A stretch of DNA of 42,502 nucleotides from NCBI GenBank assembly GCA_964606225.1, contig CAZSGC010000001.1:30649-73150 (forward strand), given 5' to 3'. Source of the stretch: an uncultured bacterium (lineage in GTDB: Bacteria; CAIJMQ01; JAADFP01; CAZSGC01). Both the position numbers and the translations under genes were made by a program. Positions within the stretch are counted from its first letter, which is position 1. Every line of letters begins with the position of its first letter. Of this stretch, positions 1-20,877 are shown piece by piece. Below the pieces are notes generated by a model, which was given only the letters and a program-made list of their open reading frames with translations, searched no databases and was not told the origin of the DNA.

Positions 1-376
1 CTTCTCTACGGGTCTTCTCTATCTCCAGTACCTGATGATATAAGAACTCTGCTTCTTGGAATCTTTTCTCCCTTAAGGCTCTATCTGCTCTCTTAAGTAA
101 AACTCTTATTCTTTCTTCTCTCTCCTTCTCTCTGTAAAAAGCCACTACCCTAAGGTATCTTTTTGCTAAACGATTTTCCGGGTCAATTTCCAGAACTTTC
201 TTAAATTCTTCCTCTGCTTTAGACCAGTTTTTTAGTCTAAGATACGCCTTTCCTAACTCCAAGTGTTCCCGAATATTTTTCTCTTTCTCCTGAGGAAGTG
301 CTGAATTTAGCCACAGGAAAAAGAAACCCCATATAAGTAAAAATACAAAAGGAAATAGAAAGAGTTTTCTCTTCAC
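1..376 (-). CDS. TPR-repeat protein, N-terminal ~125 codons only (gene runs off the left edge). It lies directly downstream of the pilP-like gene and may be a pilotin-like or secretin-associated component.
   Basis: Absent from the ORF track because no stop lies in the window. The reverse complement reads GGAGG, 6 nt, then GTG(376), followed by VKRKLFLFPFVFLLIWGFFFLWLNSALPQEKEK (hydrophobic signal/anchor). A canonical TPR unit follows: HLELGKAYLRLKNWSKAEEEFKKVLEIDPENRLA. The frame stays open to position 1. Confidence 0.5.
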   Translation of the reverse strand, partial: MKRKLFLFPFVFLLIWGFFFLWLNSALPQEKEKNIREHLELGKAYLRLKNWSKAEEEFKKVLEIDPENRLAKRYLRVVAFYREKEREERIRVLLKRADRALREKRFQEAEFLYHQVLEIEKTRRE

Positions 377-377
377 C

Positions 378-917
378 TTATCCTCCTATTTTAAGTTCAA
401 ATTTAGGCTTACCCTCCTTAAAAAGTATTATGCTGGAAGAGGTAATTTTCTCCACTTTCCATCCCTCTACTACATCTCCCTCCTTAACAAAATAGGTCCT
501 TCCCGTCCTCTTATTCTGGATGGTAGCAATCAGTTCCCCAATCTGCATCAAACCGGTACATACCAGATCCATCCTCTCTTCAGTCTTAGGGGTTTCTCCA
601 GGAGTAGGGGTAACCGTAGGTTCAGGAGGAGTAAAAGGAGGAAGGGGAGCAAAAGGATTACGGGAAAGAATTTCTCGGTAATAGGTAAAAGGACGAGGGG
701 AAAGAAAAGCAAGATAAGTCTCATCTCCTACATTTTTATTTACCGTCTCCGGATCCCATCTTACCTGAGGCTTCAGACCTAACTCTAAAGCGGAGGGGTT
801 AAGAGTCCTTGCCCAGGTATTGTAAAGCCTCCATCCCAATGTCATCCAGCAAAGTAAAATTAACCAGAGAATTACTTTTTCATAATTATCTCTCATCCAT
901 AGAAGAAAAGTTCGCAT
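378..917 (-). CDS. PilP-like pilus assembly protein (membrane-anchored, Pro/Thr linker, C-terminal beta domain)
   Basis: ORF 378..938. The ATG at 917 is preferred over the TTG at 938: it follows the upstream TAA stop by 1 nt, and a GGAG lies upstream. The protein has a TM anchor (VILWLILLCWMTLGW) and a linker PFAPLPPFTPPEPTVTPTPGETP. The C-terminus GRTYFVKEGDVVEGWKVEKITSSSIILFKEG resembles PilP/GspC-HR-type domains. It sits after the pilO-like gene. Confidence 0.6.
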   Translation of the reverse strand: MRTFLLWMRDNYEKVILWLILLCWMTLGWRLYNTWARTLNPSALELGLKPQVRWDPETVNKNVGDETYLAFLSPRPFTYYREILSRNPFAPLPPFTPPEPTVTPTPGETPKTEERMDLVCTGLMQIGELIATIQNKRTGRTYFVKEGDVVEGWKVEKITSSSIILFKEGKPKFELKIGG

Positions 918-918
918 A

Positions 919-1797
919 TTAAATCTTGCTCCACTCAATGTAGGAAAGAGAAAGGGTAACTTTTAGGATTCTTTCTGGAGAAGCAGATTCCTTTTTTTCC
1001 TCCCTATTTATCTCTTCTCTCCTTTCCGGTATTCTTCTTCCCCTCTCTACCTTCATCCTTTCCCTTTCCTCTACCCTCCTCTCTTCTGCTCCAGTAAATT
1101 TTTCTCTCTCTGTACTTTTAGTTGCTTCTTCAGATTCTATCCCTAACCCCTCCACCAGAATAAATCTTTCCTTACTATTCTCTAACTCTAAAAGCAACTT
1201 GGTTAGAGACAATAAATCACAATTGAAAGTTAATGTCAAGGGAGTTTTTTCATAAAGAGAGGAACTTCTCCTTTCTCGCTTTCCACCTTCCTCTCCAAAG
1301 GTAATAGAGGAAATTTCTTTAATGCCCGAATCTATGCATTTCTTTAGCAACCATTCCACCAGATATAATCTCTTAAGAAGCGCAGGTACTTCCTTCTCCT
1401 CAGGTAAAGAGTCAGTTACTCCCAAGTCTTGAGGAATGGTAGCCTGATTAAGAGAAGCGTATCTCTCTAATTCTTCCTGAGTATTGTAGAAGGTCTCTAA
1501 GTAATAGAGGGAAGGATTCTGCTCCGAAGGTATCTCTATCTTAACTTCTCTATAGAGAGCAGACCTTACCTTCTTATACTCCTCTTCTAAAATCTGATTT
1601 CCTCTCTTTAAAGCCTCTATCAGTTGAGGAGAAGGCGGCCCTTCAGGGACTGAATAGTAACTCTTTACTTGTTCCATCTTCTCCTCCAAGGTTTTTTCTA
1701 CCTCTCTCTTCTTAATAAGAAAGGGACGAGCTACCACCAGATAAATTACCAATAAAACTATCACAAATCCAGCAGGAAATAACAATATTTTTCTCAT
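919..1797 (-). CDS. PilO-like (GspM-like) bitopic pilus alignment protein with a charged low-complexity insertion
   Basis: ATG at 1797. A single N-terminal TM (ILLFPAGFVIVLLVIYLVVA) is followed by a coiled-coil-like segment. The gene lies between the pilMN fusion and the pilP-like gene. The family call rests on architecture and synteny, not on a diagnostic motif. Confidence 0.55.
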   Translation of the reverse strand: MRKILLFPAGFVIVLLVIYLVVARPFLIKKREVEKTLEEKMEQVKSYYSVPEGPPSPQLIEALKRGNQILEEEYKKVRSALYREVKIEIPSEQNPSLYYLETFYNTQEELERYASLNQATIPQDLGVTDSLPEEKEVPALLKRLYLVEWLLKKCIDSGIKEISSITFGEEGGKRERRSSSLYEKTPLTLTFNCDLLSLTKLLLELENSKERFILVEGLGIESEEATKSTEREKFTGAEERRVEERERMKVERGRRIPERREEINREEKKESASPERILKVTLSLSYIEWSKI

Positions 1798-1800
1798 TTT

Positions 1801-3546
1801 TTATGAGGTCTTAACATATACTCGCAGAGTAAACTCTACCTCTCCTCCCTCCCCCCTTTGCACATTTTCCAGAACCACATCTATAAATAGAGGAGATGCT
1901 TTCAAGCGGGTAATATATTCATCTACTCGTGGGAAGGACTTGGCTCTCCCCCTAAGATAAAGGGTCTCTCCAGAAACTTTCCTTCCTCTGCCCCTTCTTA
2001 TAGGAGATGGGGGGAAGGTTGTTTCTGCTCTCCTTCCTCGGGAAGAAGGAACAGGGCTTAGGTTTCTTCTTTCCTCACCTGGTAAGGCTCTTTTCCTCAC
2101 TACCGGTGCCTTTTCTCTTTCTGGAATCGCTCGCCTCTCCATAGTAATTTCCCCTTCCCCCGTACTCTGGGTAGTCTTCCCTAAGGAAAGAATATAAATA
2201 TCTGAAGGAGTCAGGTGAGATATCTCTCTCAATAAATCAGACCAAAAAGTCCTCTTCGCCAGTATCTTTTTAACTTCAGTAAGTCTATTCTCAAGATTCC
2301 CTCTCTCCTTTTTCAATTTCTCTATCTCTGGTAAATAGGGTTTGAACTCCTCCATTATGGCCTCAACTCTCTGAAGTTTAAGTCTGGTGATGGTATAGTC
2401 TTGATAGGCAAAAGTAGAGAAAGTAACCCCCACTATAGGAATCAGGATGGAGGAGAGAACAAAGTAAGGCATCTTTCTCTGTAAAGATTTCTTACCAGTA
2501 ATTACCGGAGGGAGAAGATTTATCTCTACAGGAAGAGAGACCAGCCCCCGCAGAGCGAGCCCTATACTTACCGAATATAGAGAATCCTCTCCTATCTGTG
2601 AAGGCTCAACTTTAAGATTTACCCAAGGATTTACTTCTATAACTTCACTCTTGAAGGAATCATAGAGAAATTTATGAAAACTCTTAAGGGTGGAGAGCCT
2701 GCCACTTAAAAATATTCTTTCAAAAGTGGTGACTTTCTCCACCTGAGAGAGATAATAATTCATGGTTCTCTTAATCTCGGTAGCCAGGTCTTCCCAAATC
2801 CCTCTTACCCACTCCTCCCCTTTCCCAGAGAAAAGAAGATTCTCTGCCTCTTGGTAATCTGCTCCTGTCTCTCTCATAATTTCCCTTAACATATTTCTTT
2901 CCCCTATGGGTATAGAACGAGTGAAAGCCAGCGCCTGTCCATTCTCTATCATAATATCAGTAAAGTTCCACTCTACAGAGAGAACAATGTTTATCCCCGC
3001 TTCAGGAAGTAAATTATTGAAAACCAGACAATTATGGAGGGAAAGAACGGAGACATCCACAATATCCGGTTCCAGTCTGATGGAGGCTTTAATCTGGTCC
3101 ACAATACCTTCCACCATCTCCTGCTTTACTGCTGCCATCATGACTTCTAAAGACTTGGTCTCTTTCTCTATAGGAGAGGCAAGTTGGTAACCCCACACCA
3201 CCTCTTTTAAAGGAAAAGGTATCTGCTGTTGCACCTCATATCCTACAATCTGTCTTACCTTAGCCTGAGGTACGGGAGGTAATCTCAACCTCCGAACAAA
3301 AGCAATCTGCCCCCCTAATCCTGCCACCAGAATGCTCTTTCTATAATCGATTCCTTCCAGAGAACGGGCTAATGCTTCTCGGAAGGCAGCCTCTCTCTCT
3401 TCCTTATCCTTTACATCTCGGGGAAGTATACGGGAACGGACATCCAGAAGGACAATATCTTTTCCTCTCTTCTCCAGTCTTACCAGATTTATTCTATCTG
3501 CAGAGAGGTCAATACCAATACAAGTCTTACCTTTGGTAGCAAACAT
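1801..3546 (-). CDS. PilM-PilN fusion protein (actin-like ATPase-fold PilM domain, TM segment, periplasmic PilN-like domain)
   Basis: The N-terminus CIGIDLSADRINLVRLEKRGKDIVLL is the typical PilM/FtsA-like phosphate-1 strand. After roughly 350 aa of cytoplasmic domain comes a TM segment (PYFVLSSILIPIVGVTFSTFAY), then a coiled coil and an alpha/beta C-terminal domain ending EVEFTLRVYVK. Confidence 0.8.
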   Translation of the reverse strand: MFATKGKTCIGIDLSADRINLVRLEKRGKDIVLLDVRSRILPRDVKDKEEREAAFREALARSLEGIDYRKSILVAGLGGQIAFVRRLRLPPVPQAKVRQIVGYEVQQQIPFPLKEVVWGYQLASPIEKETKSLEVMMAAVKQEMVEGIVDQIKASIRLEPDIVDVSVLSLHNCLVFNNLLPEAGINIVLSVEWNFTDIMIENGQALAFTRSIPIGERNMLREIMRETGADYQEAENLLFSGKGEEWVRGIWEDLATEIKRTMNYYLSQVEKVTTFERIFLSGRLSTLKSFHKFLYDSFKSEVIEVNPWVNLKVEPSQIGEDSLYSVSIGLALRGLVSLPVEINLLPPVITGKKSLQRKMPYFVLSSILIPIVGVTFSTFAYQDYTITRLKLQRVEAIMEEFKPYLPEIEKLKKERGNLENRLTEVKKILAKRTFWSDLLREISHLTPSDIYILSLGKTTQSTGEGEITMERRAIPEREKAPVVRKRALPGEERRNLSPVPSSRGRRAETTFPPSPIRRGRGRKVSGETLYLRGRAKSFPRVDEYITRLKASPLFIDVVLENVQRGEGGEVEFTLRVYVKTS

Positions 3547-3553
3547 ATAAACT

Positions 3554-3582
3554 ATTTTAGAACATTATTGTGGGAAAGTAAA
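3554..3582 (-). promoter_or_regulatory. Sigma-70-type promoter for pilMN-pilO-pilP, predicted to give a leaderless or near-leaderless transcript
   Basis: The minus strand reads TTTACT(3582..3577), a 17-nt spacer, TAAAAT(3559..3554), 7 nt, then ATG(3546). There is no Shine-Dalgarno between the -10 box and the ATG. Confidence 0.5.
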
Positions 3583-3604
3583 AATCGTGGGAGAAAGTCT
3601 TCTA

Positions 3605-6600
3605 TTACCTTCCCTCCTTCCAGAACCAGAATCTACGCGGAGGAGAAGGAACTTCTTCCCAGGGAGAAGGTTTACGATATACCCAACTCTGTATGTCTGT
3701 ATCGGACTTGTCAGGTTCTGCAGGATAATAAACTTCCACCAAAAAGGAGTAACTATTGTCGGGTAAAAGTTCTTCGGTAGTATTGTCACCGTAGGTAAGG
3801 GTACCTTCCCATATATTAGGATTGGTGCTAACCTGCCATTTGAAGTCATAGTTGAGAGCAACTTTGCCTTCCGGTTTATATAAATAACATTTATACTCGT
3901 GGGCTCCACTTCCTCCCCAACTTCTCCAAGTAAAGGTTACCACATCTTCCTGAGAAATTCCAGCCGGACCTTCTATAATCTCTACATGAGGTAGGTCACT
4001 CTCTATCCACCAGTAATAGGTATTACCTCCTATACCTCGTGTTTCTTGAGTCTCATAATTCCCTGCCTTATCCATATATCTTACTTTGAAGGCATAGGCT
4101 CTCCCCGGGGTGAGATTGGTGTAAGAAGTAGAGAGGTAACTATCACCCTCTACAAAATCACTCCAACCCAAATCCTTTCCTTCCAGCATCCATCTCACCA
4201 GCCAGGTGTCAGAAAGACTCTCTCCGGTTATTTGATTGGCAGGGTCGTAAGAACTCCAGGTAAAGGAGGCGGAAGTAGAGGAAGAACTGGCAGTGGTTTC
4301 AACTATGGAAGTTACCATAGGGGTAGTATCCACCTGAATCTTTATTCCCGTATCAGAGGTAATCACCTCATTCCCTGCTCGGTCATATATACGAAATCTT
4401 ATACGGTTAAAATCCCGGGATTCCATCTGGAAGAGAGCGGTATCTACCTGCACTACCTCCTCTACATTAACCGCTCCCTCAAAACCAGAAGGTAAGGTTA
4501 TATAATCCTTCTGCCACTCTCCCCAGTAAAATTTTTTGTTGAGGGTATCGTAAAGGTAAAGAGAGTACATGGGAGGGCTATCAGAGAGGGTGGTCTCATT
4601 AAGACCAGAGCAGTCATTAACACTGGCTCCCAGATTTACATCAGGATTTTTGTCTATTACCTTGATTCTCACCCCAGGGGTTCGAGAAACTGTCCAGGTA
4701 TCCTGAGAGTTCTCCACCCAGGTAAAAGCCCGGTTAAGTAAATCAGTAGGGTAATCGTAAACAGGATAGACTTCGGAGTAATAAACTTCCGGAGTTTCTT
4801 CCACCACTACGGGAGGGGCAGTATCTTTCAGGAGAAAGAGGAGAGAAGAATCTCCCCCATCATCCTCAGGGATACTATAAGAAGGAGGAGGAATCTCCTC
4901 ATTACCTGCATTGTCAGTGGCTCTTGCTTCAATGGCGTAGCCACCTTCGGTGGGAGGATAGAAAACATACTGCCACTGGGAGTAATCTCCTCTACCACTG
5001 GTATCCTCCACCAGTTCCCAGGTTCCCCACTCGTATTGACTCTCATTTTCCGGCCAGGCTCCTCCCTGATTACGTCTCCCAGTTCTTATCCTCACCACAT
5101 CGATTCCGGTAGGATAAAGAACGCTATCATAAGCCACACCACTCACTTTTACCGGCAAAGTATTCTGAGCATTGAAGATGTAAACGGTTCTGCCATCTAA
5201 CTGGATAGGGAAAAGACCGGTATCCGGAGTAGAAGAATCCCGAGGCGGGACGTTAATTTCGGTGAAGGGAGGTTCCACATCTACATAAATACTCTGGAAA
5301 TTTATCACCACCTCTTTCAGTACCGGACTTACACTACTCTGGGAAGTCTTAAGGAAAGGACGATACTGGAGATACCGGGAGATAGGATGGACTCTCACTT
5401 CATCAAAGTAAGCCTGGCTACTGGTGTAAAGAGAAAGGTTAGAAGGGGTAAAGGTGGGATTGTTGATACGCCCATACCCCACATCCTGAATATTCACCGT
5501 TATAGCCTCATCTCCCTGAAAACTCCATCTTTTCCAGTTCACAAGATACCTTTCTCCAGAGGTGTAAGTACCCAGGAAGGAAGAATCCTCCACCACTCCA
5601 TCATTGATATACTGAAGATACACTTCTCCATTCTCAAAATAGACCAGATATCCGGTATCTCCAGAAACTTCCTCCAGAGGACCAAAGGTTTGATTGGAGA
5701 TAGCGGATACAGTTTTACCACTTATAGGAGTTACCCAGTGGTAAAGGGAAAAATACTCTTCTATCTCTTTCTGAGAGGTTACACCTGTAGGGGTGGAAGC
5801 GGTAATCTCCAGATGGAGATTTACCTCCTCAATCCCGGAGACCTCACCCCACCTACTCCAGAGACTCCCATCCAGGGTATCATCGTTAAAACTATCCCGC
5901 CACCTCACTATGTACTCCTCCCCTCCTTTCACTCCGTAAGCGTAGGGAGGAGACCACCTTCCATCTATATCTGTATCGGAGAGGGGAGTATCGGAGTCCC
6001 GGGTATATAAGATGATAAATCTCCTCAAAGCATGGGAAGTGATAAGAGGCTCGGAAAGAGCGCCCTGAGAAATCTTCACCAGGTCTATCTTCCCAGAAAA
6101 TCCTTCCGTGCTTCCGCCCAGGAAAAGGGAGGGATTACCCGGGTAAAGGATGTCTCCTTCCGCAAAGGTGTTGGTGTATTTGGGAATACCGTCCACATAA
6201 AGGATTAAATTATTCCCCCCGTAAGTAAAGGCAAGATGGTACCACTCAAAGAAAGAGAAAGCATCGGGATCAGTAGCCGTGTAGGAGCCTGTGGAAGTAT
6301 AAATCTTTACCTGGAAATGACCAGAACTGTCCGTACCCAGCCACCACCCTGAGTTCTGACCATCTCCCATAGAGAGAATACTTTGAGCCGTGGAAGAGAC
6401 TGTGGGATATACCCAGCATTCCACAGTGAGAGTTCTCAAAGCCAGAGAGGAGGAGTAGGGAACTTCCACGTAATCTCCAGAAGAAAAACTTAAAGACCAG
6501 TGAGTAGGATACTCTCCCTCATAGGTCCAGGTGGCTCCCCAAACATTCCCATGATTATCAAAACCTGAGGAATCCAGAGCAGTATCCGCATTCCCCCCCT

Positions 6601-6928: not shown

Positions 6929-6955
6929 CTTTTTCGCCTTCCCTTTAACAAAAAG

Positions 6956-6971
6956 GGCAAATTATTTGCCA
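6956..6971 (-). promoter_or_regulatory. Sigma-54 (-24/-12) promoter match upstream of the LamG gene; the same sequence can also be read as a weak hairpin
   Basis: The minus strand reads TGGCAA-ATAAT-TTGCC against the consensus TGGCAC-N5-TTGCA, with exact GG/GC spacing. The predicted +1 is near 6945, giving a 17-nt leader AAGGGAAGGCGAAAAAG before ATG(6928). Confidence 0.5.
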
Positions 6972-6986
6972 ACCTTCTCAATATTC

Positions 6987-11609: not shown

Positions 11610-12113
11610 TCAGTAATACTGCTCCCAGGATTTATTCACATCCCAGTTGTTAATATCGTCTTTGTTGGTAGAAGAGTTTCCTGTATCTCTGTCTTTTCCT
11701 TTAGAGTAAATATAATAGTCTAAGTCTGGTATATCCGTAATGGGTATACCCGTCTCATTACTCAGATTATTTTTTCTGTTTGCTCCCCCAAAGAACCTGT
11801 AGGGATTCCCCCAAGGGTCGTTTCCAATTCCTTTTATATAAGGACCAGACCAGTTCCCTCCCTGGTCCTGAGTTAAGGCTGTCTCCACCACAGATATATC
11901 ACCATTCACATCCCCAAAGTATCCACCCATATCGTGTTCATACATGGAGATGGCGGTCTCCAGAGCAGCAATCTCTGCCTCTACTCGAGCCATCTTTGCC
12001 CGGTCAATTCTGCGGGCTAAATTGGGAAGGAGAATTCCCGCCAGAAGTATAATTATCCCCACCACCACCATAAGTTCAGTAAGGGTAAAACCTTTTTTGT
12101 TTATCCCCTTCAT
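11610..12113 (-). CDS. GspG/PulG-type (pseudo)pilin, candidate major subunit 2
   Basis: The N-terminus reads MKGINKKG|FTLTELMVVVGIIILLAGILLPNLARRIDRAKMARVEAEIAALETAISMYEHD, and later DPWGNPY. This is the typical GspG N-terminal helix and core. A GGAGG lies upstream of the ATG. Confidence 0.8.
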   Translation of the reverse strand: MKGINKKGFTLTELMVVVGIIILLAGILLPNLARRIDRAKMARVEAEIAALETAISMYEHDMGGYFGDVNGDISVVETALTQDQGGNWSGPYIKGIGNDPWGNPYRFFGGANRKNNLSNETGIPITDIPDLDYYIYSKGKDRDTGNSSTNKDDINNWDVNKSWEQYY

Positions 12114-12505: not shown

Positions 12506-12529
12506 CCCTCCTCTTTCCTTTATAAACAC

Positions 12530-12545
12530 TGCAATTTTTGTTCCG
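12530..12545 (-). promoter_or_regulatory. Sigma-54 (-24/-12) promoter match for the pilin / minor-pilin operon
   Basis: The minus strand reads CGGAAC-AAAAA-TTGCA, with GG and GC at consensus spacing. The predicted +1 is near 12519, giving the leader AGGAAAGAGGAGGG before ATG(12505). It lies directly downstream of a sigma-54-dependent regulator/kinase pair. Confidence 0.55.
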
Positions 12546-13672: not shown

Positions 13673-15038
13673 CCCTGACTTCCTCAGGATGAATATGATA
13701 AATTCTCATCTTCTCATAAAAGTGTCGGCGAGAAATTCCGGCTTTCTGGCTGGCTTTACTAACATTACCTCTGGTTTCCTTAAGTAGCCTTAATATATAC
13801 TCTCTCTCCGTTCTCTTTCTTACCTCCTCCAAAGTCCCACGGAGATTTTCCTCCCCAGATACCCGATAACCTCTTATCCTCTCCGGAAGGTCCTCCACAT
13901 CAATCACTCTCTCCTCCGCAAGTACAATACATCCCCTCACCACATTCTCCAATTCCCGAACATTTCCAGGCCAGTCGTAACTCTCCAAGTATTTCATAGC
14001 CTGACGGGAAAAGGTTTTTCTCATAGAAGCATCTTTACTCTGGTATTTGTTAAGAAAATGCTCTACCAGAAGGAGAATATCTTCTTTCCTCTCCCTTAAA
14101 GGGGGCAAAGTAATGGAAACAGCGTTTAGACGATAGAAGAGGTCTTCCCGGAATCTCCCCTCTTTCATTTCTTTCTCTAAATCTTTGTTGGTGGCAGAGA
14201 CAATCCTCACATTAACCCGGATGGGCTCGGTACCACCTACTTTGTAAAATTCTCCCTCCTGGAGGAACCTTAAGATTTTCATCTGGACAACAGGAGAGAG
14301 GTCTCCTACTTCATCCAGAAATACCGTCCCTCCATCCGCCACCTCTAATAGACCCTTTTTCCTCTCCATAGCCCCGGTGAAGGCTCCCTTTTCATGTCCG
14401 AATAATTCACTCTCCAGAAGTGTCTCCGGTAGGGCACCACAGTTTACGGTTAGAAACCGTTTTTCTCTTCTGGGGCTTCTTCTGTGTATAGCCCGGGCTA
14501 CCAGTTCTTTTCCTGTACCACTTTCCCCTATCAGCAATACGGAGACATCACTTTTGGCTACTTTCTGTATAAACTCATAAACTTTCTTCATTTTTTCACT
14601 CAACCCTACCAGTTCTTCAAAGCCTCTCTCCTTCTCCAGTTCTTCCTTAAGAAGAGAGACATCTTCCTTAAGTCTTTCATGCTCCAAGGCTCTTTCTATG
14701 GAAATTATCACCTCTTCCGGATTAAAGGGTTTGAGAATATAATCGTAGGCTCCCAAGCGAAGAGCCTGAATGGCGGTCTCCATACTACCGTAAGCAGTTA
14801 TTATGATAAAGGGAATTCTCCATCCTTCCTGACGAAGTTTCTCCAGGAATTTAGTGCCTTCCATATCCGGGAGTTTGAGGTCACTCAGCACCAGATGGGG
14901 AGAAACCTTACGGATTTCTTTCCAAGCAGAGTTAGCCTTATCAAAGGGATAAACCTTGTATCCTTTAGATTCCAGAAGGATGGATAGATTTCTGCTCAGT
15001 ACTTTATCATCTTCCAGGAGGAGGATTCTATACTTCAT
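13656..15038 (-). CDS. Sigma-54-dependent response regulator (NtrC family, PilR-like by context): REC, AAA+ and Fis-type HTH domains
   Basis: REC motifs are LLLEDD and SDLKLPDMEG. Walker A is GESGTGKELVARAIH, the sigma-54 contact loop is GAFTGA, and the C-terminal HTH is GNVSKASQKAGISRRHFYEKM. ATG at 15038 is preferred; the tracked start at 15041 is the adjacent in-frame TTG. Confidence 0.9.
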   Translation of the reverse strand: MKYRILLLEDDKVLSRNLSILLESKGYKVYPFDKANSAWKEIRKVSPHLVLSDLKLPDMEGTKFLEKLRQEGWRIPFIIITAYGSMETAIQALRLGAYDYILKPFNPEEVIISIERALEHERLKEDVSLLKEELEKERGFEELVGLSEKMKKVYEFIQKVAKSDVSVLLIGESGTGKELVARAIHRRSPRREKRFLTVNCGALPETLLESELFGHEKGAFTGAMERKKGLLEVADGGTVFLDEVGDLSPVVQMKILRFLQEGEFYKVGGTEPIRVNVRIVSATNKDLEKEMKEGRFREDLFYRLNAVSITLPPLRERKEDILLLVEHFLNKYQSKDASMRKTFSRQAMKYLESYDWPGNVRELENVVRGCIVLAEERVIDVEDLPERIRGYRVSGEENLRGTLEEVRKRTEREYILRLLKETRGNVSKASQKAGISRRHFYEKMRIYHIHPEEVRDVGKK

Positions 15039-15046
15039 CAATCTTA

Positions 15047-15075
15047 ATTATAAAGGGAAAGGGTAGAGACTGCAA
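15047..15075 (-). promoter_or_regulatory. Sigma-70-type promoter for the pilR/pilS-like operon, predicted to be leaderless
   Basis: The minus strand reads TTGCAG(15075..15070), a 17-nt spacer, TATAAT(15052..15047), 8 nt, then ATG(15038). No Shine-Dalgarno is present. Confidence 0.55.
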
Positions 15076-15095
15076 AAAGTAGGGTTTAGAGAACC

Positions 15096-16355
15096 TTAAT
15101 GAATCATGGTGGCGATTCTTATCAAAGGAAGGAAAAGCGAAATTACAATAAAGCCCACTATCACACCCATAAAAACAATCAGCAGAGGCTCCAGAATAGA
15201 GGCTAATCCCTCCACAGCGGTATCCACTTCCTCATCATAAGTATCTGCTACTTTAATAAGCATAGTGTCCAAGGCTCCCGTCTCTTCTCCTACATCCACC
15301 ATGTTCACCACCAGGGGAGGAAATACCTTGGCTTCCTCTAAGGGTTTGGCTATACTTTCTCCCTCTCGAATAGAATCATGAACTCTTACCATAGCCCGGG
15401 AGATTACTTCATTACCCGATGTTTCCTTAACAATAGCCAGAGCCTGTAAGATAGGAACTCCACTATTAATCAATGTCCCCAGAGTCCGTGTAAATCTGGC
15501 AATAGCACTTTTGAGAAATAGAGGGCCAAAGATAAAGAGTTTAAGTTTTACAAAATCTATTAAGTATCTACCTTTCTGAGTACGGTAGATGAGTTTGAAA
15601 GCCACGAAGAGGAAAATTAAGGCAGCAATTCCATAATACCACCTGGTCTTAACCAAATCTGAGGCAGCGATAAGGATTCGGGTAGGAAGAGGAAGGTTTG
15701 CCCCCACTCCTCCAAATTCCTCAAACATTTTCTTGAATATAGGAATAATATAGGTAATTATGAAGGTCACAATACCGGAGGCTACTACTGCTACCACCAC
15801 CGGATATATCATGGCTCCTTTAATCTTCCTTCTTAAGGAGGCTTCCTTCTCCATAAACTCAGCAATTCGGGAAAGCACTACTTCCAGAACACCTCCCACC
15901 TCTCCAGCCTTTACCATATTTATATAAAGTTTAGAGAAGGTCTCAGGATGCTTGGCTAAAGCCTCAGAAAAAGTACTACCTCCTTCTATATCTTCTATTA
16001 AATCGGTAATGATATTCTTTAAAGGTCCTGGTTTAGCCTGCTCCCGGAGTACATTCAAACTCCTCACCAAAGGCAATCCAGCATCAATAAGAGTAGCCAG
16101 TTGCCTGGTAAATTCAGTTAACTCTTTAGTCTTTACCCGGGTTGTAAGACCGGGTATCTTTATCTCCATCTGGAGGCTTAAACCCTTAGCCTCCTTTTTC
16201 TTCCCTGCTACAGGAACTCTCTGTTCTTTGATTCGGGTGGGGAAGTAACCCATCTCTCTTATCTGAGAGGCAGCCAGATTTACATTATCTGCTTCTATAG
16301 TGCCCTTAACCTCTTTACCCTGATTGTTCAGTGCCACGTAAGTATAAACGGGCAT
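15096..16355 (-). CDS. pilC: Type IV pilus / T2SS inner-membrane platform protein PilC/GspF
   Basis: The 419-aa protein has duplicated GspF-type repeats (LTEFTRQLATLIDAGLPLVRSL and IARFTRTLGTLINSGVPILQAL) and three TM segments. GGTGAGGAG lies upstream of the ATG. Confidence 0.9.
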   Translation of the reverse strand: MPVYTYVALNNQGKEVKGTIEADNVNLAASQIREMGYFPTRIKEQRVPVAGKKKEAKGLSLQMEIKIPGLTTRVKTKELTEFTRQLATLIDAGLPLVRSLNVLREQAKPGPLKNIITDLIEDIEGGSTFSEALAKHPETFSKLYINMVKAGEVGGVLEVVLSRIAEFMEKEASLRRKIKGAMIYPVVVAVVASGIVTFIITYIIPIFKKMFEEFGGVGANLPLPTRILIAASDLVKTRWYYGIAALIFLFVAFKLIYRTQKGRYLIDFVKLKLFIFGPLFLKSAIARFTRTLGTLINSGVPILQALAIVKETSGNEVISRAMVRVHDSIREGESIAKPLEEAKVFPPLVVNMVDVGEETGALDTMLIKVADTYDEEVDTAVEGLASILEPLLIVFMGVIVGFIVISLFLPLIRIATMIH

Positions 16356-16377
16356 CTCTCCTCACCCCCTCTATCTT

Positions 16378-18096
16378 TTATACATAACCAGTGGTTTCTC
16401 TAACCACTTCTTCAATAGTAGTAATCCCTCTAAAAATCTTATCCAATCCATCCTTCCTCAGAGTTCTCATCCCATACTTGAGAGCAATCTCTCGAATTTC
16501 TCCCGCAGAGGCTCTCTCCACCACCGCCCTTCTTAACTCCTCATTCATTACCAGAATTTCAAATATTCCCGTTCTCCCCGCATATCCAATATTATTGCAG
16601 GCAGGACATCCTCTACCTCTATAAAACTTATGCTTCTTAGCCTCTTCTCTACTCATCTCCAGAAGTTCCAGCTCTTCCGGAGAGGGCTCATACTCCTCCT
16701 TACAGTAATTGCATATCACCCTAACCAATCGCTGGCTTATCACTGCTTCCAGAGTAGAACTTATCAGAAAAGGCTCCACTTCCATATCCACCAGTCGGGT
16801 TACTGCAGAAGGTGAATCATTGGTGTGAAGAGTGGAGAAGACTAAGTGTCCGGTGAGGGAAGCCTGGATAGCCATCTCCGCAGTCTCCAAGTCTCTTATT
16901 TCTCCCACCAGAATAATATCCGGGTCTTGGCGAAGGATATGCCTTAAGGTAGTGGCAAAGGTCAACCCTATCTGGGGTTTTACCTGAACCTGAATAATTC
17001 CTTCAATATCATACTCTACCGGATCTTCCACAGTGATAATCTTTACCTCAGGAGAGTTTATCTCTCTTAAAGCAGCGTAGAGAGTGGTAGTCTTCCCACA
17101 TCCTGTAGGACCAGTAACCAGAATTATCCCATTGGGTTTATGGATAAGTTTCCTCACTATCTCCAGGTCTTCCTCACATAACCCCAGTTTCTCCAGAGGA
17201 AGCATTAAGACGCTTTTATCCAGCACCCTCATCACTACACTCTCTCCAAAAACGGTAGGCACGGTGGAAACTCGCAAGTCTATCTCTCTTCCTCCCATGT
17301 GGAGGGAAATTCTTCCATCCTGAGGAAGTCTCCTCTCGGCAATGTCCATATCTGCCATTACCTTAATTCTGGTGGTCACAGCCAAAGCAAAGTGTTTGGG
17401 AGGAGGAACCATCTCATAGAGCACCCCATCCACTCTATATCTTATCCGGAACTGGTCTTCAAAAGGCTCAAAGTGAATATCACTGGCTTTATCCTTTATA
17501 GCCTGAATAAGAACCAGGTTAAGAAGTTTAACCACCGGGACTTCATGAGCCAGTTGTTCCAGGGTCTCCACATCTTCCACTTCCTCCGGAGTTTCTTCCA
17601 GGGGAGCCGCCTCTGCTTCTAAAGTTTTAAGAAGGTCTTCCACTGTCTCCATCTCTGCCCCATAAAGACGGTCAATAGCCTCATTAACTGCCTGTTCATT
17701 ACTTATCAGCCCCTTCACCTCACAATCCAGAAGGAACCTCAAATCATCCAGAGCCTGAACATTCAGGGGGTCTCCCATGGCCACCACCAGAGTATCTCCT
17801 TCCATCCTTACAGGGACAATCTTGTAGGCTTTAGCCAAGGGACCGGGTACTTTTTCCAGAAGTTGAGGACTTACTTCCACCTCGGAGAGGTCTATCTCCT
17901 CCATTCCTGTCTGGGCACCTAAGACAGAGAGTATATCCTCATCAGTGACAAATCCCATCTCCACCAGGACTCGACCCAGCAACTTTCCACTCTTTTTCTG
18001 TTCCTCCAAGGCTTGCTCAAGTTGTTTTTCCGTTATAAGTCCTCTCTCCAGAAGCAAGGTGCCCAGTTTCTTTCTCCCTACTGCTTTCTCCTTCAC
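16378..18096 (-). CDS. pilB: PilB/GspE-family extension ATPase, copy B, with an intact MshEN-type N-terminal motif pair
   Basis: Walker A is GPTGCGKTTT, the Asp box is PQDGRI, and the His box is GHLVFSTLHTND. The tetracysteine motif is CNYC..CPAC. The GTG start at 18096 overlaps the pilT stop (GTGA) and is preceded by GGAGGGGAG. Confidence 0.9.
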   Translation of the reverse strand: MKEKAVGRKKLGTLLLERGLITEKQLEQALEEQKKSGKLLGRVLVEMGFVTDEDILSVLGAQTGMEEIDLSEVEVSPQLLEKVPGPLAKAYKIVPVRMEGDTLVVAMGDPLNVQALDDLRFLLDCEVKGLISNEQAVNEAIDRLYGAEMETVEDLLKTLEAEAAPLEETPEEVEDVETLEQLAHEVPVVKLLNLVLIQAIKDKASDIHFEPFEDQFRIRYRVDGVLYEMVPPPKHFALAVTTRIKVMADMDIAERRLPQDGRISLHMGGREIDLRVSTVPTVFGESVVMRVLDKSVLMLPLEKLGLCEEDLEIVRKLIHKPNGIILVTGPTGCGKTTTLYAALREINSPEVKIITVEDPVEYDIEGIIQVQVKPQIGLTFATTLRHILRQDPDIILVGEIRDLETAEMAIQASLTGHLVFSTLHTNDSPSAVTRLVDMEVEPFLISSTLEAVISQRLVRVICNYCKEEYEPSPEELELLEMSREEAKKHKFYRGRGCPACNNIGYAGRTGIFEILVMNEELRRAVVERASAGEIREIALKYGMRTLRKDGLDKIFRGITTIEEVVRETTGYV

Positions 18097-19157
18097 ACTC
18101 TCCCCTCCACTTTTGCCTGAATCTCTTCCGGATTCTGAGCCCTTATCATCATATCCTCATAAGTTATAACTCCCTTGGAGTAAAGTTCATAGAGATGCTG
18201 GTCCAAGGTTCTCATTCCATACCGGGCTCCTGTCTGAATAAAGGAGGTTATACGATAAGTTTTCTTCTCCCTTATCAAACTCTGGATAGCAGGGATGGCT
18301 ACCATTATCTCAAAGGCAGCTACCCTTCCTTTCCCAGAGGCACGGGGAAGTAATTGCTGAGAAATTACCGCAATCAAATAGGAAGATACCTGAACCCTTA
18401 TCTGTTCCTGTTTCTCAGCAGGGAAAGCATCAATGATTCTATCCACTGTCTGAGCAGCACCTGTAGTATGAAGAGTGGAGAAAACTAAATGTCCGGTCTC
18501 AGCAGCCAGAAGAGCAGCCTCAATGGTATTTATATCTCTCATCTCCCCTACCATCATGACATCAGGGTCCTGTCTTAATCCCCTTATAATAGCCTCGGCA
18601 AAGGAAGGCACATCTACTCCCAGTTCTCGCTGAGAGACAATCCCTCTTTTATGCTCATGGTAGTATTCTATGGGGTCTTCTATGGTTAAGATATGACAAT
18701 CCCGCTGGGTATTAATATAATCAATCATAGTGGCTAAGGTAGTGGTCTTTCCACTTCCCGTAGGACCGGTAACCAGTATAAGTCCACGAGGACGATAGAG
18801 AAGTTCCTTGATTTTTTCCGGTAAACCAATTTCTTCAAAGGTAAGAAGTTTATAAGGAATAAGCCGCATGGCTATACTGATTCTTCCCTTCTCCCGGTAC
18901 ACGCTTACCCGGAAACGAGCCAGGTCTCCAAAAGCAAAACCGAACTCCGTCCCTCCCACCTCTCTCACCTTCTGCTGGTGAGGAGGAGAGGTTATACTCT
19001 TCATCATTCTCTCCGTATCTTCAGGAGTAAGAGGCTCGTAATCCAGCACATCCAGTCTTCCATCTATCCTTAATACCGGAGGTTTGCCCACCACTAAATG
19101 AAGGTCGGAAGCATTTCTCTCCACCACTAAACGCAGTAGTTCTCCTATCTCCAGCAT
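18093..19157 (-). CDS. pilT: PilT twitching-motility (retraction) ATPase
   Basis: The 354-aa protein has no N-terminal GSPII_E_N domain. Motifs include ASDLHL, GPTGSGKTTT, RGLRQDPDVMMVGEMRD and GHLVFSTLHT. AAGGAG lies 9 nt upstream of the start. Confidence 0.9.
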   Translation of the reverse strand: MLEIGELLRLVVERNASDLHLVVGKPPVLRIDGRLDVLDYEPLTPEDTERMMKSITSPPHQQKVREVGGTEFGFAFGDLARFRVSVYREKGRISIAMRLIPYKLLTFEEIGLPEKIKELLYRPRGLILVTGPTGSGKTTTLATMIDYINTQRDCHILTIEDPIEYYHEHKRGIVSQRELGVDVPSFAEAIIRGLRQDPDVMMVGEMRDINTIEAALLAAETGHLVFSTLHTTGAAQTVDRIIDAFPAEKQEQIRVQVSSYLIAVISQQLLPRASGKGRVAAFEIMVAIPAIQSLIREKKTYRITSFIQTGARYGMRTLDQHLYELYSKGVITYEDMMIRAQNPEEIQAKVEGRV

Positions 19158-19158
19158 T

Positions 19159-20877
19159 TTAGACTACTCCTTCTACTACATCCTGCTGGGTTACTCTTAT
19201 TACTTCTTCCACCGTGGTAATCCCCCGATAGGCTTTTACCCACCCATCTTCCCTTAAAAGCTTCATCCCCTCTTGCCGAGCCATTTCTCTTATCTCATAA
19301 CTGGTGGCTCTCTGTAAAATCATCCGGCGAATGTTTTCGCTCACTACCAGAAGTTCAAATATTCCCGTCCTTCCCCTGTATCCAGTCATGTTACACTCTG
19401 AACATCCTCTTCCCTTCACGAAGTTGGCTCCCTCAAGAGTACCCATTACCGCCTCTACTTCTCTCAGGACCTCATCAGGTGGAGTAACTGGCTCCTGACA
19501 CTTGGGACATACTTTTCTCACCAATCTTTGAGCCAGAACTGCCTGCACAGCAGAAGCAACTAAGAAGGGTTTAATTCCCATATCTATCAATCGGGTCACT
19601 GCACCTGCAGCATCATTGGTATGGAGGGTAGAGAAAACCAAATGACCGGTTAAAGCAGCACGGATGGCTATCTCCGCGGTCTCTGTATCTCTAATCTCTC
19701 CCACCATGATAACATCGGGTGCCTGCCTTAAGATGGAACGAAGAGCAGAAGAAAAGGTAAGTCCAATCTGAGGTTTGACCTGCAATTGATTGATACCAGA
19801 AAGTTGATACTCTACCGGGTCTTCAATGGTAATTATCTTCCTATCCGGTAAGTTTAACTGGTTTAATACTGCATAGAGAGTAGTGGTCTTTCCACTTCCT
19901 GTAGGACCGGTTACCAGGATAATTCCATTAGGTAGATTTATTACTCTCTGCCATCTATCCAAATCTTCTTCCAGAAAGCCCAGTTCAGTGAGGCCATAAA
20001 GAAGACTGGATTTATCCAGAATTCTCATCACCACACTCTCTCCATGAATCCCAGGGAGAGAAGATACTCGCAGGTCTAACTGTCTACCCAATACATTTAC
20101 CATTATCCTTCCATCTTGGGGAAGTCTCTTCTCAGCAATATCCATACCTGCCAGAATCTTAATACGGGAAATCACCGCTCCTTCCAGTCTCTTAGGAGGA
20201 GCAGGGACTTCATGAAGAACACCATCTATACGGTATCTTATGCGAAGGCGGTTAGCTAAAGGCTCAACATGTATATCACTGGCCCGGGCTCTGAAAGCCT
20301 CCAAAATTAATAAACTCACCAATCGAATTATGGGTGCCTCTTCTGCAAGTTCTACTTCCTCTACCTCTGTAGCAGTTCCCTCGGCAAAACTTATGTCCTG
20401 CTCGGTCAACTCCTCCAAAACTGTATCTATGGTTTCTTCTTCCACCCCATAGAATCTGTTTAAATACTGATTTACCTCTCTCTCTGAAGCAAGTACTGCC
20501 TTTATCTTACAACCAATCATCCTCTCCAGATTATCTAATCCCAGAAAATCCAGGGGGTCAGAGAGAGCCACGGTTAAAACTCCATCTTTTAACTCTAAAG
20601 GAATAATTTTGTGTTTTCTGGCTATGGGAGCAGGAACCTTGGCAATAACGTCAGAGTCTGGATGATAATCAGAAATTTTAACCGGAACTAAGCCAAAGTG
20701 GACACTTAAGGCTTTGGTGAGATCTTCCCGGCTAATATACCCCATCTTGACAAGAACATCACTTAACCTCTCTCCGGTTTCTTCCTGCTCTCTTAAAGCG
20801 AATTCTAACTGTTCTTCAGTAACCAGACCGATATTGACTAAAATCTCCTTCCACAGTTCCTGCTCTCGGTTTCCCAT
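19159..20877 (-). CDS. pilB: PilB/GspE-family extension ATPase, copy A
   Basis: Motifs include GPTGSGKTTT, PQDGRI, GHLVFSTLHTND and CPKC..CSEC. The protein is 572 aa, the same length as copy B. The start lies 11 nt after the pyrG stop and has GAAGGGGA upstream. Confidence 0.9.
   Translation of the reverse strand: MGNREQELWKEILVNIGLVTEEQLEFALREQEETGERLSDVLVKMGYISREDLTKALSVHFGLVPVKISDYHPDSDVIAKVPAPIARKHKIIPLELKDGVLTVALSDPLDFLGLDNLERMIGCKIKAVLASEREVNQYLNRFYGVEEETIDTVLEELTEQDISFAEGTATEVEEVELAEEAPIIRLVSLLILEAFRARASDIHVEPLANRLRIRYRIDGVLHEVPAPPKRLEGAVISRIKILAGMDIAEKRLPQDGRIMVNVLGRQLDLRVSSLPGIHGESVVMRILDKSSLLYGLTELGFLEEDLDRWQRVINLPNGIILVTGPTGSGKTTTLYAVLNQLNLPDRKIITIEDPVEYQLSGINQLQVKPQIGLTFSSALRSILRQAPDVIMVGEIRDTETAEIAIRAALTGHLVFSTLHTNDAAGAVTRLIDMGIKPFLVASAVQAVLAQRLVRKVCPKCQEPVTPPDEVLREVEAVMGTLEGANFVKGRGCSECNMTGYRGRTGIFELLVVSENIRRMILQRATSYEIREMARQEGMKLLREDGWVKAYRGITTVEEVIRVTQQDVVEGVV

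Follow-up and report, generated by a model that had tools for sequence, protein, structure and literature searches.

What kind of machine is built by a locus in which hallmarks of type IVa pili (T4aPs) are mixed with a pseudopilin series in the style of type II secretion systems (T2SSs), and what could be the role of the two giant proteins encoded at the end of this series? The question is raised by a stretch of 42,502 nt from an uncultured bacterium (assembly GCA_964606225.1, contig CAZSGC010000001.1, positions 30,649 to 73,150), hereafter called the window, whose first 20,877 nt carry this locus. An earlier note, made from the sequence alone, had described the locus as atypical on account of five features: two PilB paralogs flanking pilT, two candidate major pilins of different size, an oversized K subunit followed by a LamG/immunoglobulin-like (Ig) protein, a PilM–PilN fusion and motor genes lying directly behind kdsB and pyrG. 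The family searches that it called for were run with the profiles of Pfam and NCBIfam and their curated cut-offs; all of the 17 open reading frames (ORFs) that it had listed were found on the minus strand at the expected positions, with strong family matches, and they describe a T4aP-type machine with a GspG-H-I-J-K-like set. We propose that the locus probably encodes one envelope-spanning T4aP-like machine of a conserved, uncharacterised design, bearing a LamG tip adhesin docked on K. The most interesting result is a cis/trans complementarity of the terminal strand in the K family, which gives the LamG/Ig proteins a specific and testable role.

The minus strand carries every gene from position 1 to about 31,000. 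In the order of transcription, two tRNA genes, kdsB and pyrG come first, then the genes of the locus, which are the following:

19159-20877, minus strand: extension ATPase B1, 572 aa (T2SSE 478 bits, MshEN)
18093-19157, minus strand: retraction ATPase PilT, 354 aa (TIGR01420; AIQSLIRE motif read from the sequence)
16378-18096, minus strand: extension ATPase B2, 572 aa (T2SSE 472 bits, MshEN)
15096-16355, minus strand: platform protein PilC/GspF, single copy (T2SSF twice, 233 bits)
13656-15041, minus strand: sigma-54 activator response regulator of the NtrC family, PilR-like by context (Response_reg, Sigma54_activat, HTH_8)
12611-13672, minus strand: membrane histidine kinase, PilS-like by context (HisKA, HATPase_c)
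12128-12502/12505, minus strand: GspG-type pilin 1, 124-125 aa from ATG (T2SSG)
11610-12113, minus strand: GspG-type pilin 2, 167 aa, with a DPWGNPY motif and a C-terminal extension (T2SSG)
11047-11607, minus strand: GspH/FimU-like minor pilin H, 186 aa (N_methyl; gspH and Verru_Chthon cassette protein D below cut-off)
10581-11057, minus strand: GspI/PilV-like minor pilin I, 158 aa (N_methyl; TIGR02523 pilV below cut-off)
9881-10609, minus strand: GspJ/PilW-like minor pilin J, 242 aa, assigned partly by position (N_methyl; T2SSJ E 0.003)
6987-9884, minus strand: giant GspK/PilX-type minor pilin K, 965 aa (NF037980, LTD, HHH_3)
3605-6928, minus strand: secreted LamG/Ig protein, 1107 aa (signal peptide, Laminin_G_3, Y_Y_Y, Big_3_2)
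1801-3546, minus strand: PilM–PilN fusion (PilMN), 581 aa (PilM_2 and PilN)
919-1797, minus strand: PilO/GspM-like bitopic protein (weak matches; position after PilMN)
378-938, minus strand: PilP/GspC-HR-like protein, start codon uncertain (weak matches; position after PilO)
2-376, minus strand: TPR part of a putative TPR-secretin fusion (PilQ/GspD-like), cut by the edge of the window (TPR_2, TPR_1)

Motor, alignment complex and conservation of the design

The retraction ATPase PilT passes its family model (TIGR01420, 459.7 bits for a cut-off of 319.1) and is encoded between two extension ATPases that are indeed of equal length (572 aa) and share 52% identity. This arrangement recurs in relatives: pilT lies between both pilB genes in a close relative of the window (L030/L032), in Omnitrophota (L036) and in Ratteibacteria (L038). 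When compared with proteins of solved structure, both ATPases are closer to those of T4aPs (524–576 bits with Geobacter PilB, 540–544 bits with Thermus PilF and 507–545 bits with Myxococcus PilB) than to EpsE from a T2SS (420–451 bits, i.e. about 100 bits below PilB/PilF), B2 being closest to Geobacter PilB (574–576 bits versus 446–451 bits for EpsE); this margin arises partly because T4aP proteins share the MshEN N-terminal domain with the ATPases of the window. The platform protein matches the T2SSF family of Pfam but remains below the cut-offs of the PilC equivalogs (425 and 424 bits for 700) and of GspF (410.6 bits for 424). As there is a single PilC, both extension motors must share one platform.

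In a neighbour-joining tree, B1 and B2 form two orthologous clades, each including sequences from the window, its relatives and Omnitrophota/Ratteibacteria, with 65–83% identity within the B1 clade, 52–86% within the B2 clade and about 50% between clades. The duplication of pilB is therefore older than the split of these lineages, and both copies have been kept since. Orthologs of B1 with 81–85% identity include P0041 (source name Ca. Calescamantes) and P0047 (Caldiserica), and homologs with 66–67% identity include P0055 (named Ratteibacteria) and P0059 (Omnitrophica). To go by the names of its closest named B1 orthologs (Ca. Calescamantes and Caldiserica MAGs, 85 and 83% identity), the lineage of the window is probably Calescibacteriota-like. 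A literature search for pili of Calescamantes gave nothing specific, and one on PilB1, PilB2 and PilT listed articles about species that have several PilB genes. The Walker A motif and two CxxC pairs are kept in both B1 and B2. Members of the B2 clade have two canonical MshEN half-motifs (xLGxxLLExGLIT...QLxxALxEQ and LLGRxLVxxGxV...DILxxLxxQ) and a GPTGCGKTT Walker A, and those of the B1 clade have degenerate half-motifs (ELWKEILVNIGLV... and RLSDVLVKMGYIS...ALSVH) and a GPTGSGKTT Walker A. The generic model of the MshE-related domain binding cyclic di-GMP (c-di-GMP) is passed by both ATPases (70.7 and 60.8 bits). A doubtful but conceivable scheme is that B2 would be gated by c-di-GMP and that B1 would act independently of c-di-GMP or serve the second pilin, which would provide two extension modes in one machine.

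The block following K encodes the putative alignment complex and the beginning of a secretin. PilM and PilN are fused, as had been noticed: a single polypeptide passes the Pfam cut-offs of PilM_2 (residues 11-334, 98.6 bits) and of PilN (residues 524-577, 34.8 bits). This polypeptide scores 121.5 bits with TIGR01175 (cut-off 133) and has its best NCBIfam match with the Amuc_1101 family (184.1 bits for 650); none was found with GspL in NCBIfam. The fusion is not the oddity that it was taken for: fused orthologs of 506–559 aa are encoded in L009, L012, L030 and L040, its best match is the Amuc_1101 family, and a fused PilM–PilN has the architecture of GspL, PilO and PilP being the counterparts of GspM and of the HR domain of GspC, respectively (Berry and Pelicic 2015, PMC4471445). 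The PilO-like protein has sub-threshold matches with Amuc_1100_fam (E 6e-7, 29.2 bits for 180), GspM (E 2e-5, 24 bits for 60) and T2SSM_b (E 0.0014), and its orthologs follow PilMN in the same four loci. The PilP-like protein, which is far below the cut-offs of GspC_delta (E 4.8e-5, 23 bits for 150) and pilP_fam (E 0.0036), consists of an N-terminal transmembrane helix, a Pro-rich linker and a C-terminal beta domain; orthologs are found in L012 and L030. The fragment with tetratricopeptide repeats (TPRs) at the left edge of the window is collinear with residues 33-124 of a 1151-aa protein made of TPR, Secretin_N and Secretin domains that follows PilP in L030 (40% identity, E 3e-17). On the basis of this collinearity, the cut gene is identified as the N-terminus of a secretin; TPR-secretins of 818–1038 aa occupy the same position in L009, L012 and L040 from Omnitrophota. 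The left edge of the window thus does cut a TPR gene, but the claim that no secretin lies inside the window has to be amended, as part of one does. In L012, two secretin genes lie in tandem after PilP, one encoding the TPR-secretin (818 aa, 18255-20711) and the other a shorter secretin (503 aa, 20713-22224).

The comparison of synteny suggested by the earlier note recovered two blocks of the locus in relatives. The complete order was found on a 66-kb ENA contig of one relative (L030 and L032), which reads IDH-purA-kdsB-pyrG-B1-PilT-B2-PilC-response regulator-histidine kinase-G-G-H-I-J-K-LamG-PilMN-PilO-PilP, followed by the TPR-secretin; its ATPases are 83–86% identical to those of the window, and its K and LamG proteins 43–47%. 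The first block is exemplified by L036 (Omnitrophota, GCA_018824485.1), with thyA-kdsB-B1-PilT-B2-PilC-response regulator-histidine kinase-G-G-..., and by L038 (Ratteibacteria, GCA_028715665.1), with thyA-kdsB-B1-PilT-B2 up to the end of the contig. The order kdsB-pyrG-pilB1 is found in L032, L034 and L035, kdsB-pilB1 in L036 and L038, and PilT-B2-PilC-...-K in L004, L014, L015, L018 and L041. The second block (K, secreted Ig protein, PilMN, PilO, PilP and TPR-secretin) is carried by L009, L012 and L040 from Omnitrophota. The five departures are thus typical of the lineage, as the close relative, Omnitrophota and Ratteibacteria all keep the gene order. Judged by gene order and profile matches, the design is present in Omnitrophota, Ratteibacteria and the lineage of the window, and the K family also in Aerophobetes and in a Planctomycetes metagenome-assembled genome (MAG). 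As far as sequence comparisons go, the T4aP-like identity of the machine and its conservation across lineages are held with high confidence.

In the passages devoted to pili by Seymour et al. 2023 (PMC10066038), T4aPs are annotated by TXSScan in nearly all Omnitrophota genomes, often adjoining an unusual F-type ATPase; dual PilB, giant K and partner protein are not mentioned in those passages of the article that contain pilus terms. An ATP-synt_ab gene, located about 8 kb upstream of the motor genes in L036 (1-1804) and L038 (1-1309), fits this association; the window carries none.

Giant K, its secreted partner and the terminal strand

N_methyl matches five pilins, whose class III cleavage sites were read from the sequence as G/FTLIE, G/FTLTE, G/FTLIE, G/LTLLE and G/FTLVE (cleavage indicated by the slash). 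There are two G-type subunits, and they differ in size as previously stated (124–125 aa and 167 aa). Pilin 2 passes the GspG equivalog TIGR01710 (92.1 bits for 88.85) and has GspG 5WDA as its closest solved structure; pilin 1 is below this cut-off (63.1 bits). A frame of 133 aa starting at GTG is only the longest one for pilin 1, and the identical contig L001 has a gene call of 124 aa. Pilin 1 is a candidate major pilin, because it is encoded by the first gene after a sigma-54-like promoter. The minor pilins are more distant from their models: 32 bits with gspH (cut-off 80) and a sub-threshold 34 bits with Verru_Chthon cassette protein D for H, no significant GspI match and 36.5 bits with TIGR02523 pilV (cut-off 52.2) for I, and 24 bits with gspJ (E 2.4e-5, cut-off 64.85) for J.

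K has about three times the normal size, as had been claimed, and its gigantism is a family trait: at least 24 related proteins of 640–1400 aa were found in Omnitrophota, Aerophobetes, Ratteibacteria, a Planctomycetes MAG and unclassified MAGs, and homologs within this family have Pfam T2SSK and T2SSK_1st hits. The window K scores 72 bits with NF037980 (GspK) over residues 11-303 (cut-off 130) and also matches LTD, HHH_3 (at residues 855-899) and, at its C-terminal end (last 50 residues), Verru_Chthon cassette protein A. Its N-terminus, read from the sequence, is prepilin-like (G/MALII) and lacks Glu5, a lack that is typical of GspK/PilX. The AF2 model of a shorter member of the family, P0009 (pLDDT 72, pTM 0.63), has as best PDB matches XcpX (6UTU_C, E 7e-4) and GspK (3CI0_K, E 2e-3), both with a probability of 0.99, followed by lamin Ig-fold domains. 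These matches identify K as a genuine tip pilin of the GspK/PilX type, whose large size comes from the insertion of beta-sandwich modules of the lamin-tail type. The Foldseek hits of the window K itself (toxin pores, GH2 enzymes) were rejected, as they have TM scores below 0.15 and come from a low-confidence model. In some relatives, genes encoding bAvd-like four-helix bundles (23S_rRNA_IVP, 112–121 aa) flank the giant K (L030, 9639-10004 and 13325-13663; L041, 14248-14613), and one lies between the kinase gene and the first pilin gene in L004 (about 6400-6790); the window has none. bAvd being the accessory protein of diversity-generating retroelements, such an element was considered but not retained: no reverse transcriptase was seen in the loci of relatives and bAvd-like genes are absent from the window.

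The protein encoded downstream of K possesses, to judge from its sequence, a signal peptide of the Sec type; it has a Laminin_G_3 domain (residues 149-294) and Ig-like domains, and it ends with PPRRFWFWKEGR. Only three full-length homologs, 47–49% identical, were found among 5.8 billion clusters. Of the roughly 50,000 hits of a profile search with this family, nearly all concerned the generic LamG domain of giant proteins; two full-length representatives and two fragments were recovered, and no new partners. No match with the PilY1 or Neisseria PilC families, including their beta-propeller, was found for this 1107-aa protein in Pfam and NCBIfam. Homologs of the two giant proteins are not known from any characterised T4aP locus, although their presence there was part of what the earlier note would have taken as a refutation. 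In Omnitrophota, the corresponding position is occupied by secreted Ig proteins. Direct homology between these and the window LamG protein was rejected: apart from the C-terminal residues and a single weak Ig-like stretch, BLASTP gave no significant alignment, and the two types of proteins are therefore treated as positional and functional analogues with a common terminal motif, not as one family.

A rule published by Ellison et al. (PNAS 2026, PMC13533445) bears on this motif. GspK of T2SSs and CpaL of Tad (tight adherence) pili supply the last strand of the K sheet themselves, in cis; in T4aPs, it is PilC/PilY1 that supplies it in trans, with its last ~10 residues, MshQ being predicted to act likewise in the mannose-sensitive haemagglutinin (MSHA) pilus. 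This terminal strand licenses the assembly of the tip complex and keeps the adhesin anchored under the forces of retraction (PMC13533445). In the loci considered here, a K devoid of terminal strand (trans type, ending with ...CVYER in the window) is followed by a signal-peptide Ig or LamG protein in the window, L030, L003, L009, L011, L012 and L040. The C-termini compared are the following:

Three close homologs of the LamG protein: PPRRFWFWEEGK, PPRRFWTWEEGD, PPRKFWLWEEGD
Protein downstream of K in L009: KKRPFRFWKKE
Protein downstream of K in L011 and L012: KKKPFRFWKEE
Protein downstream of K in L003: KQPIRYYKKE

Overall, the partner proteins end with RRFWFWKE, RRFWTWEE, PFRFWK(K/E)E, PIRYYKKE or EIKIWKIE, and the K proteins encoded upstream of the motif-bearing partners listed above stop at ...[IVF]x[FY]ER. 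Cis-type K proteins run 12–20 residues past the equivalent ...DR; they are found in Aerophobetes (L008, L010, L016, P0008 and P0009), the Planctomycetes MAG (L020), Ratteibacteria (L015 and L018), one Omnitrophota MAG (L014) and others. Most of their extensions resemble the ends of the partner proteins (...GAHPLKIKYYKEIN, ...GKNPIKIKYYREL, ...GGLPVRIRYYREIYEE and ...SVDPIKVRYFRWMTE), with terminal strands such as PLKIKYYKE, PIKIKYYRE, PVRIRYYRE and PIKVRYFRW, and none of these loci has a secreted Ig/LamG gene after K. When the motif, written as a regular expression, was searched for in the last 14 residues of the 1255 ORFs of at least 100 aa from the window and the loci compared before the prospective check described next, 13 matched, every one of them being K or the protein encoded just downstream of K. 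In a prospective check, L040 (Omnitrophica, GCA_016930485.1) was found to encode a K ending with ...IETIIER and then a 591-aa signal-peptide Ig protein ending with ...QEGEIKIWKIE; in L041, a trans-type K is followed by a signal-peptide gene that is cut by the end of the contig. In the model of P0009, residues 734-741 (KIKYYKEI) form a paired beta-strand located after two strands that match the end of the window K. In L009, the giant K and the Ig partner are separated by a gene (13174-14910) whose product resembles Wzz/GNVR chain-length determinants and carries a c-di-GMP-binding PilZ domain at its C-terminus.

As the cis/trans pattern matches the published rule of beta-strand addition, the LamG protein is proposed to be a non-homologous analogue of PilY1/MshQ, i.e. 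a lectin-type tip adhesin docked on the giant K, and we regard this role as fairly likely on the sequences at hand. The earlier description of a signal-peptide LamG/Ig protein following K in place of a PilY1-type protein therefore holds at the level of families, but this protein is better read as a functional counterpart of PilY1/MshQ. A ConA-like lectin module is known at the tip of the type IV pilus (T4P) of Streptococcus sanguinis, in PilC (PMC9934059). Taken as a whole, the functioning of the tip could be viewed as follows: the H-I-J-K complex would prime the filament and sit at its tip, as in T4aPs and T2SSs; the window K, lacking the last strand of the pilin sheet, would receive it in trans from the C-terminus of the LamG protein (PPRRFWFWKEGR), which would lock the adhesin onto the tip; PilT would then retract the adhesin-loaded fibre, leading to attachment or pulling.

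Likeness to known systems and alternative explanations

The T4aPs of Myxococcus xanthus, Pseudomonas aeruginosa and Geobacter resemble the window machine by their extension and retraction ATPases, PilC, PilM/N/O/P-type complex, secretin and sigma-54/PilSR-type pilin promoter, as well as by four core minor pilins followed by a Sec-exported non-pilin of about 1100 aa and by a terminal strand of K apparently supplied in trans (PMC13533445). The window differs by its two conserved PilB around pilT on a single PilC, its GspG-type pilins, a K about three times larger with LTD/beta-sandwich inserts, a LamG and Ig partner without match to the PilY1 beta-propeller or vWA, the PilM–PilN fusion and the long TPR N-terminus of its secretin. 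The MSHA pilus of Vibrio cholerae has an MshEN extension ATPase and a large non-pilin, MshQ (~1200 aa), encoded directly after its I-J-K homologs (PMC13533445). However, the LamG protein of the window has no detectable match with the MshQ family model, and the window has PilT in the locus, two extension ATPases and a giant K. MshQ is presumably annotated as a LamG-domain-containing protein; a literature search for MshQ and LamG gave nothing specific.

The cluster Amuc_1098-Amuc_1102 of Akkermansia muciniphila resembles the window in three respects: its PilM-like protein (Amuc_1101, ~600 aa) is fused, it has Amuc_1100, to which the protein at the position of PilO in the window is distantly similar, and its block ends with a secretin (Amuc_1098); as described, it has no motor, pilin or K genes (PMC10688800). 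The scores of the window proteins are far below the cut-offs of these families (184 for 650 and 29 for 180), which makes them distant relatives and not members. The gene order is shared with the T4aP loci of Omnitrophota, in both the kdsB-pilB1-...-G-G and the K-Ig-PilMN-O-P-secretin blocks, but the two blocks lie at separate sites in several of them (L009, L012) and the partner is an Ig protein of ~600 aa without LamG. The C-terminus of K and the H pilin recall proteins A and D, respectively, of the Verru_Chthon cassette (TIGR02596/TIGR02600). Finally, the Tad tip protein CpaL/TadG of Caulobacter (~600 aa) carries a large insert between its pilin-like N-domain and its cis C-terminal strand (PMC13533445), as do giant K proteins of the cis type; it belongs to another class of type IV filaments (T4Fs) and the likeness is one of topology alone, not of sequence comparison.

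Family scores bear out the mixture of T4aP and T2SS traits described by the earlier note, with PilT, MshEN ATPases and PilM/N/O/P-like proteins on one side and the GspG-H-I-J-K-like series on the other. The machine could also be viewed as a T2SS, whose pseudopilus would act as a piston and whose substrate, the LamG protein, would be encoded alongside. This would account for the scores of both ATPases, which pass the GspE equivalog (665.9 bits for B2 and 645.7 for B1, cut-off 630.25) and miss the PilB equivalog TIGR02538 (658.0 and 639.3 bits, cut-off 675.65), as well as for the GspG-type pilins (pilin 2 passing the GspG equivalog, with GspG as closest solved structures), the G-H-I-J-K order, the K fold close to XcpX/GspK and an alignment complex whose PilMN, PilO and PilP recall GspL (by its architecture), GspM and the HR domain of GspC, respectively (PMC4471445), with weak GspM and GspC matches. 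However, no GspL, GspM or GspC model is passed, and the locus differs from those of T2SSs by PilT, kept across phyla between both extension ATPases, and by the sigma-54/two-component pair that it includes. The ATPases have an MshEN N-terminal domain and the higher scores with PilB/PilF given above; the window K lacks the terminal strand that K itself carries in T2SSs (PMC13533445), and a substrate is not expected to share a C-terminal motif with K paralogs. In addition, T4aPs are reported across Omnitrophota in the TXSScan-based passages of Seymour et al. (PMC10066038). A T2SS is thus highly unlikely.

Two other explanations were considered. If the common C-terminus of the LamG/Ig proteins were a sorting or anchoring signal for the outer membrane or a surface layer, these proteins would not be parts of the pilus and their adjacency to K would be incidental. 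Such proteins could well look like the LamG protein, which has a Sec signal peptide only and no pilin-like N-terminus, whose body barely aligns with those of the Omnitrophota Ig proteins, whose LamG domain is common in giant surface proteins (the ~50,000 profile hits) and whose gene may be separated from K transcriptionally by a sigma-54-like element or hairpin. This explanation nevertheless seems unlikely: the position between K and pilMN is kept in seven independent loci despite the replacement of the protein body, K itself bears the motif exactly in the loci without partner, and the motif is modelled as a beta-strand of the pilin domain of K in P0009. Moreover, PilY1 is likewise a Sec-dependent non-pilin protein. 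The machine could also be primarily a competence pilus, with the helix-hairpin-helix (HhH) domain of the giant K as DNA receptor at the tip, which is compatible with the proposed T4aP-like machine. T4aPs mediate DNA uptake in Thermus and other bacteria, K has the HHH_3 match at residues 855-899 and the profile of its family hits ComEA (8DFK, 8DSS) and the HhH repeats of EEPD1. Nevertheless, the same HhH/SAM-like region aligns with GspK/XcpX of T2SSs (5VTM) and thus belongs to the GspK fold, no gene for ComEA, ComEC or DprA was seen in the window, and a lectin-type partner points to adhesion; there is only a very small chance that DNA uptake is the primary role.

Several observations weigh against the proposal of a T4aP-like machine with a LamG tip adhesin, beginning with the GspE and PilB equivalog scores of the ATPases and the GspG-like character of the pilins in both NCBIfam and solved structures. 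The H, I, J, K, PilO and PilP proteins are all below curated cut-offs and owe their names partly to gene order. The model of the window K is of low confidence (pLDDT 58, pTM 0.30). The regular expression for the terminal motif was written after the sequences had been seen and the motif is short, so that its test of specificity is partly circular, and L004 has a trans-type K without adjacent partner gene, being the sole exception. The prepilin peptidase and the body of the secretin fall outside the window, and the separate tasks proposed for B1 and B2 are drawn from the inspection of motifs only.

Regulation, genomic neighbourhood and significance

Four putative promoter elements were found in the locus:

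12530-12545, minus strand: sigma-54 -24/-12-like element CGGAACAAAAATTGCA, upstream of pilin 1
6956-6972, minus strand: sigma-54 -24/-12-like element TTGGCAAATAATTTGCC, upstream of the LamG gene; it doubles as a 6-bp hairpin with CTTTTTGTT after it, which could be a weak terminator
15047-15076, minus strand: sigma-70-like match TTTGCA-18-TATAAT (10/12), upstream of the regulator pair
3554-3582, minus strand: sigma-70-like match TTTACT-17-TAAAAT (9/12), upstream of pilMN

The first element has counterparts before the first pilin gene in L036 (TGGCATAAGAGTTGCT), L004 (TGGCATAAATGTTGCT) and L030/L035 (GGGAATAGAATTTGCT). This conserved -24/-12 element and the adjacent NtrC-type regulator support the prediction that the pilin genes are controlled through sigma-54 in a PilSR-like manner. 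The position of the regulator gene is conserved in relatives, and so is that of the histidine kinase gene in L004, L030, L036 and L041; the kinase passes no specific NCBIfam equivalog. A similar element (TGGCATGGAAATTGTT) precedes the LamG ortholog of L030, but, since the window element is also a hairpin followed by T's, the promoter and terminator readings are inseparable. The sigma-70-like matches are not enriched (25 observed for 27.4 expected in shuffled sequence), so that the two sigma-70 units are only plausible and give no basis for operon boundaries. From the four transcription units initially proposed, the conserved sigma-54 element of the pilin genes is thus retained, whereas the sigma-70 matches are unenriched and the LamG element is equally well read as a hairpin with T's.

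Upstream of the motor genes, the window carries:

20889-22526, minus strand: pyrG, directly upstream of pilB1
22526-23266, minus strand: kdsB, upstream of pyrG
23322-23476: tRNA-Glu(TTC) and tRNA-Lys(TTT), between purA and kdsB, upstream of kdsB-pyrG-pilB1

The 11-nt gap reported between pyrG and pilB1 is present (AGAAGGGGAAA); this junction is particular to the window, the gaps being of 80–230 nt in relatives. kdsB, which encodes the CMP-Kdo synthetase, lies upstream of pilB1 in Omnitrophota, Ratteibacteria and, with pyrG in between, in the lineage of the window, and the adjacency of a lipopolysaccharide gene and the pilus motor is thus kept. A few genes further upstream (26996-30558), lpxD is adjoined by a second pair, in which the sigma-54 response regulator has 453 aa and the histidine kinase a HAMP domain. 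L032 and L035 have a homologous pair close to the locus too, but arranged differently with respect to it. The longest ORF of this kinase (732 aa from TTG, 28360-30558, minus strand) overlaps by ~440 nt the ORF of a CCA-adding enzyme/poly(A) polymerase (30115-31506, plus strand), and the kinase probably starts further downstream, its orthologs in L032 and L035 having 556 aa. The right part of the window encodes an ATP-dependent DNA ligase of archaeal/eukaryotic type (564 aa) and a homolog of the MttB family of methyltransferases (ORFs 38846-40540 and 40572-42047). No prepilin peptidase was found among the scanned ORFs of at least 90 aa of the window, as the earlier note had stated, the remainder of the window consisting of housekeeping genes.

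Look-ups of exact proteins with PilO (two start variants) and K returned no contig reaching further left; that with PilMN returned two contigs, both ending inside pilO, and a metagenome scan with PilP only an identical contig of 1 kb. The ENA contig k141_255143 and the Logan contig SRR7517633_89806, from two independent assemblies, carry identical copies of the locus and both end within ~50 bases of each other in the PilO-like gene (about 1066-1112). The point where both assemblies stop corresponds to the Glu/Arg-rich C-terminal part of the PilO-like protein, in which no tandem repeat was detected; across the locus, there are no tandem repeats of note.

According to the passages on pili in Seymour et al. 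(PMC10066038), T4Ps would play a key part in the lifestyles, based on attachment or predation, that have been proposed for Omnitrophota and for other uncultured bacteria with small cells. Should the LamG/Ig proteins be tip adhesins held by beta-strand addition, the molecules by which several candidate phyla contact hosts or surfaces would be identified. The 2026 model of cis/trans licensing would then extend to a non-PilY1 family, with both states occurring within one K family, and a rule would be available to detect tip partners in metagenomes: a K ending with ...ER and a downstream protein ending with a strand that is aromatic and rich in K/R. A separate question, posed by the conserved pilB1-pilT-pilB2 triad and its single PilC, is how two extension motors share one machine. 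More broadly, and with odds that we put somewhat below even, these loci may represent a distinct and ancient subclass of T4Fs, common to Omnitrophota, Ratteibacteria and a Calescibacteriota-like lineage, characterised by two non-redundant extension motors (one gated by c-di-GMP, the other not) that work with one retraction motor on one platform, a GspL-like fused PilMN, a modular giant K and repeated switching of the terminal strand between K (cis) and fast-evolving Ig/LamG adhesins (trans). Such a subclass would provide a new, PilY1-independent class of pilus-tip adhesins and a natural experiment for the beta-strand-addition model.

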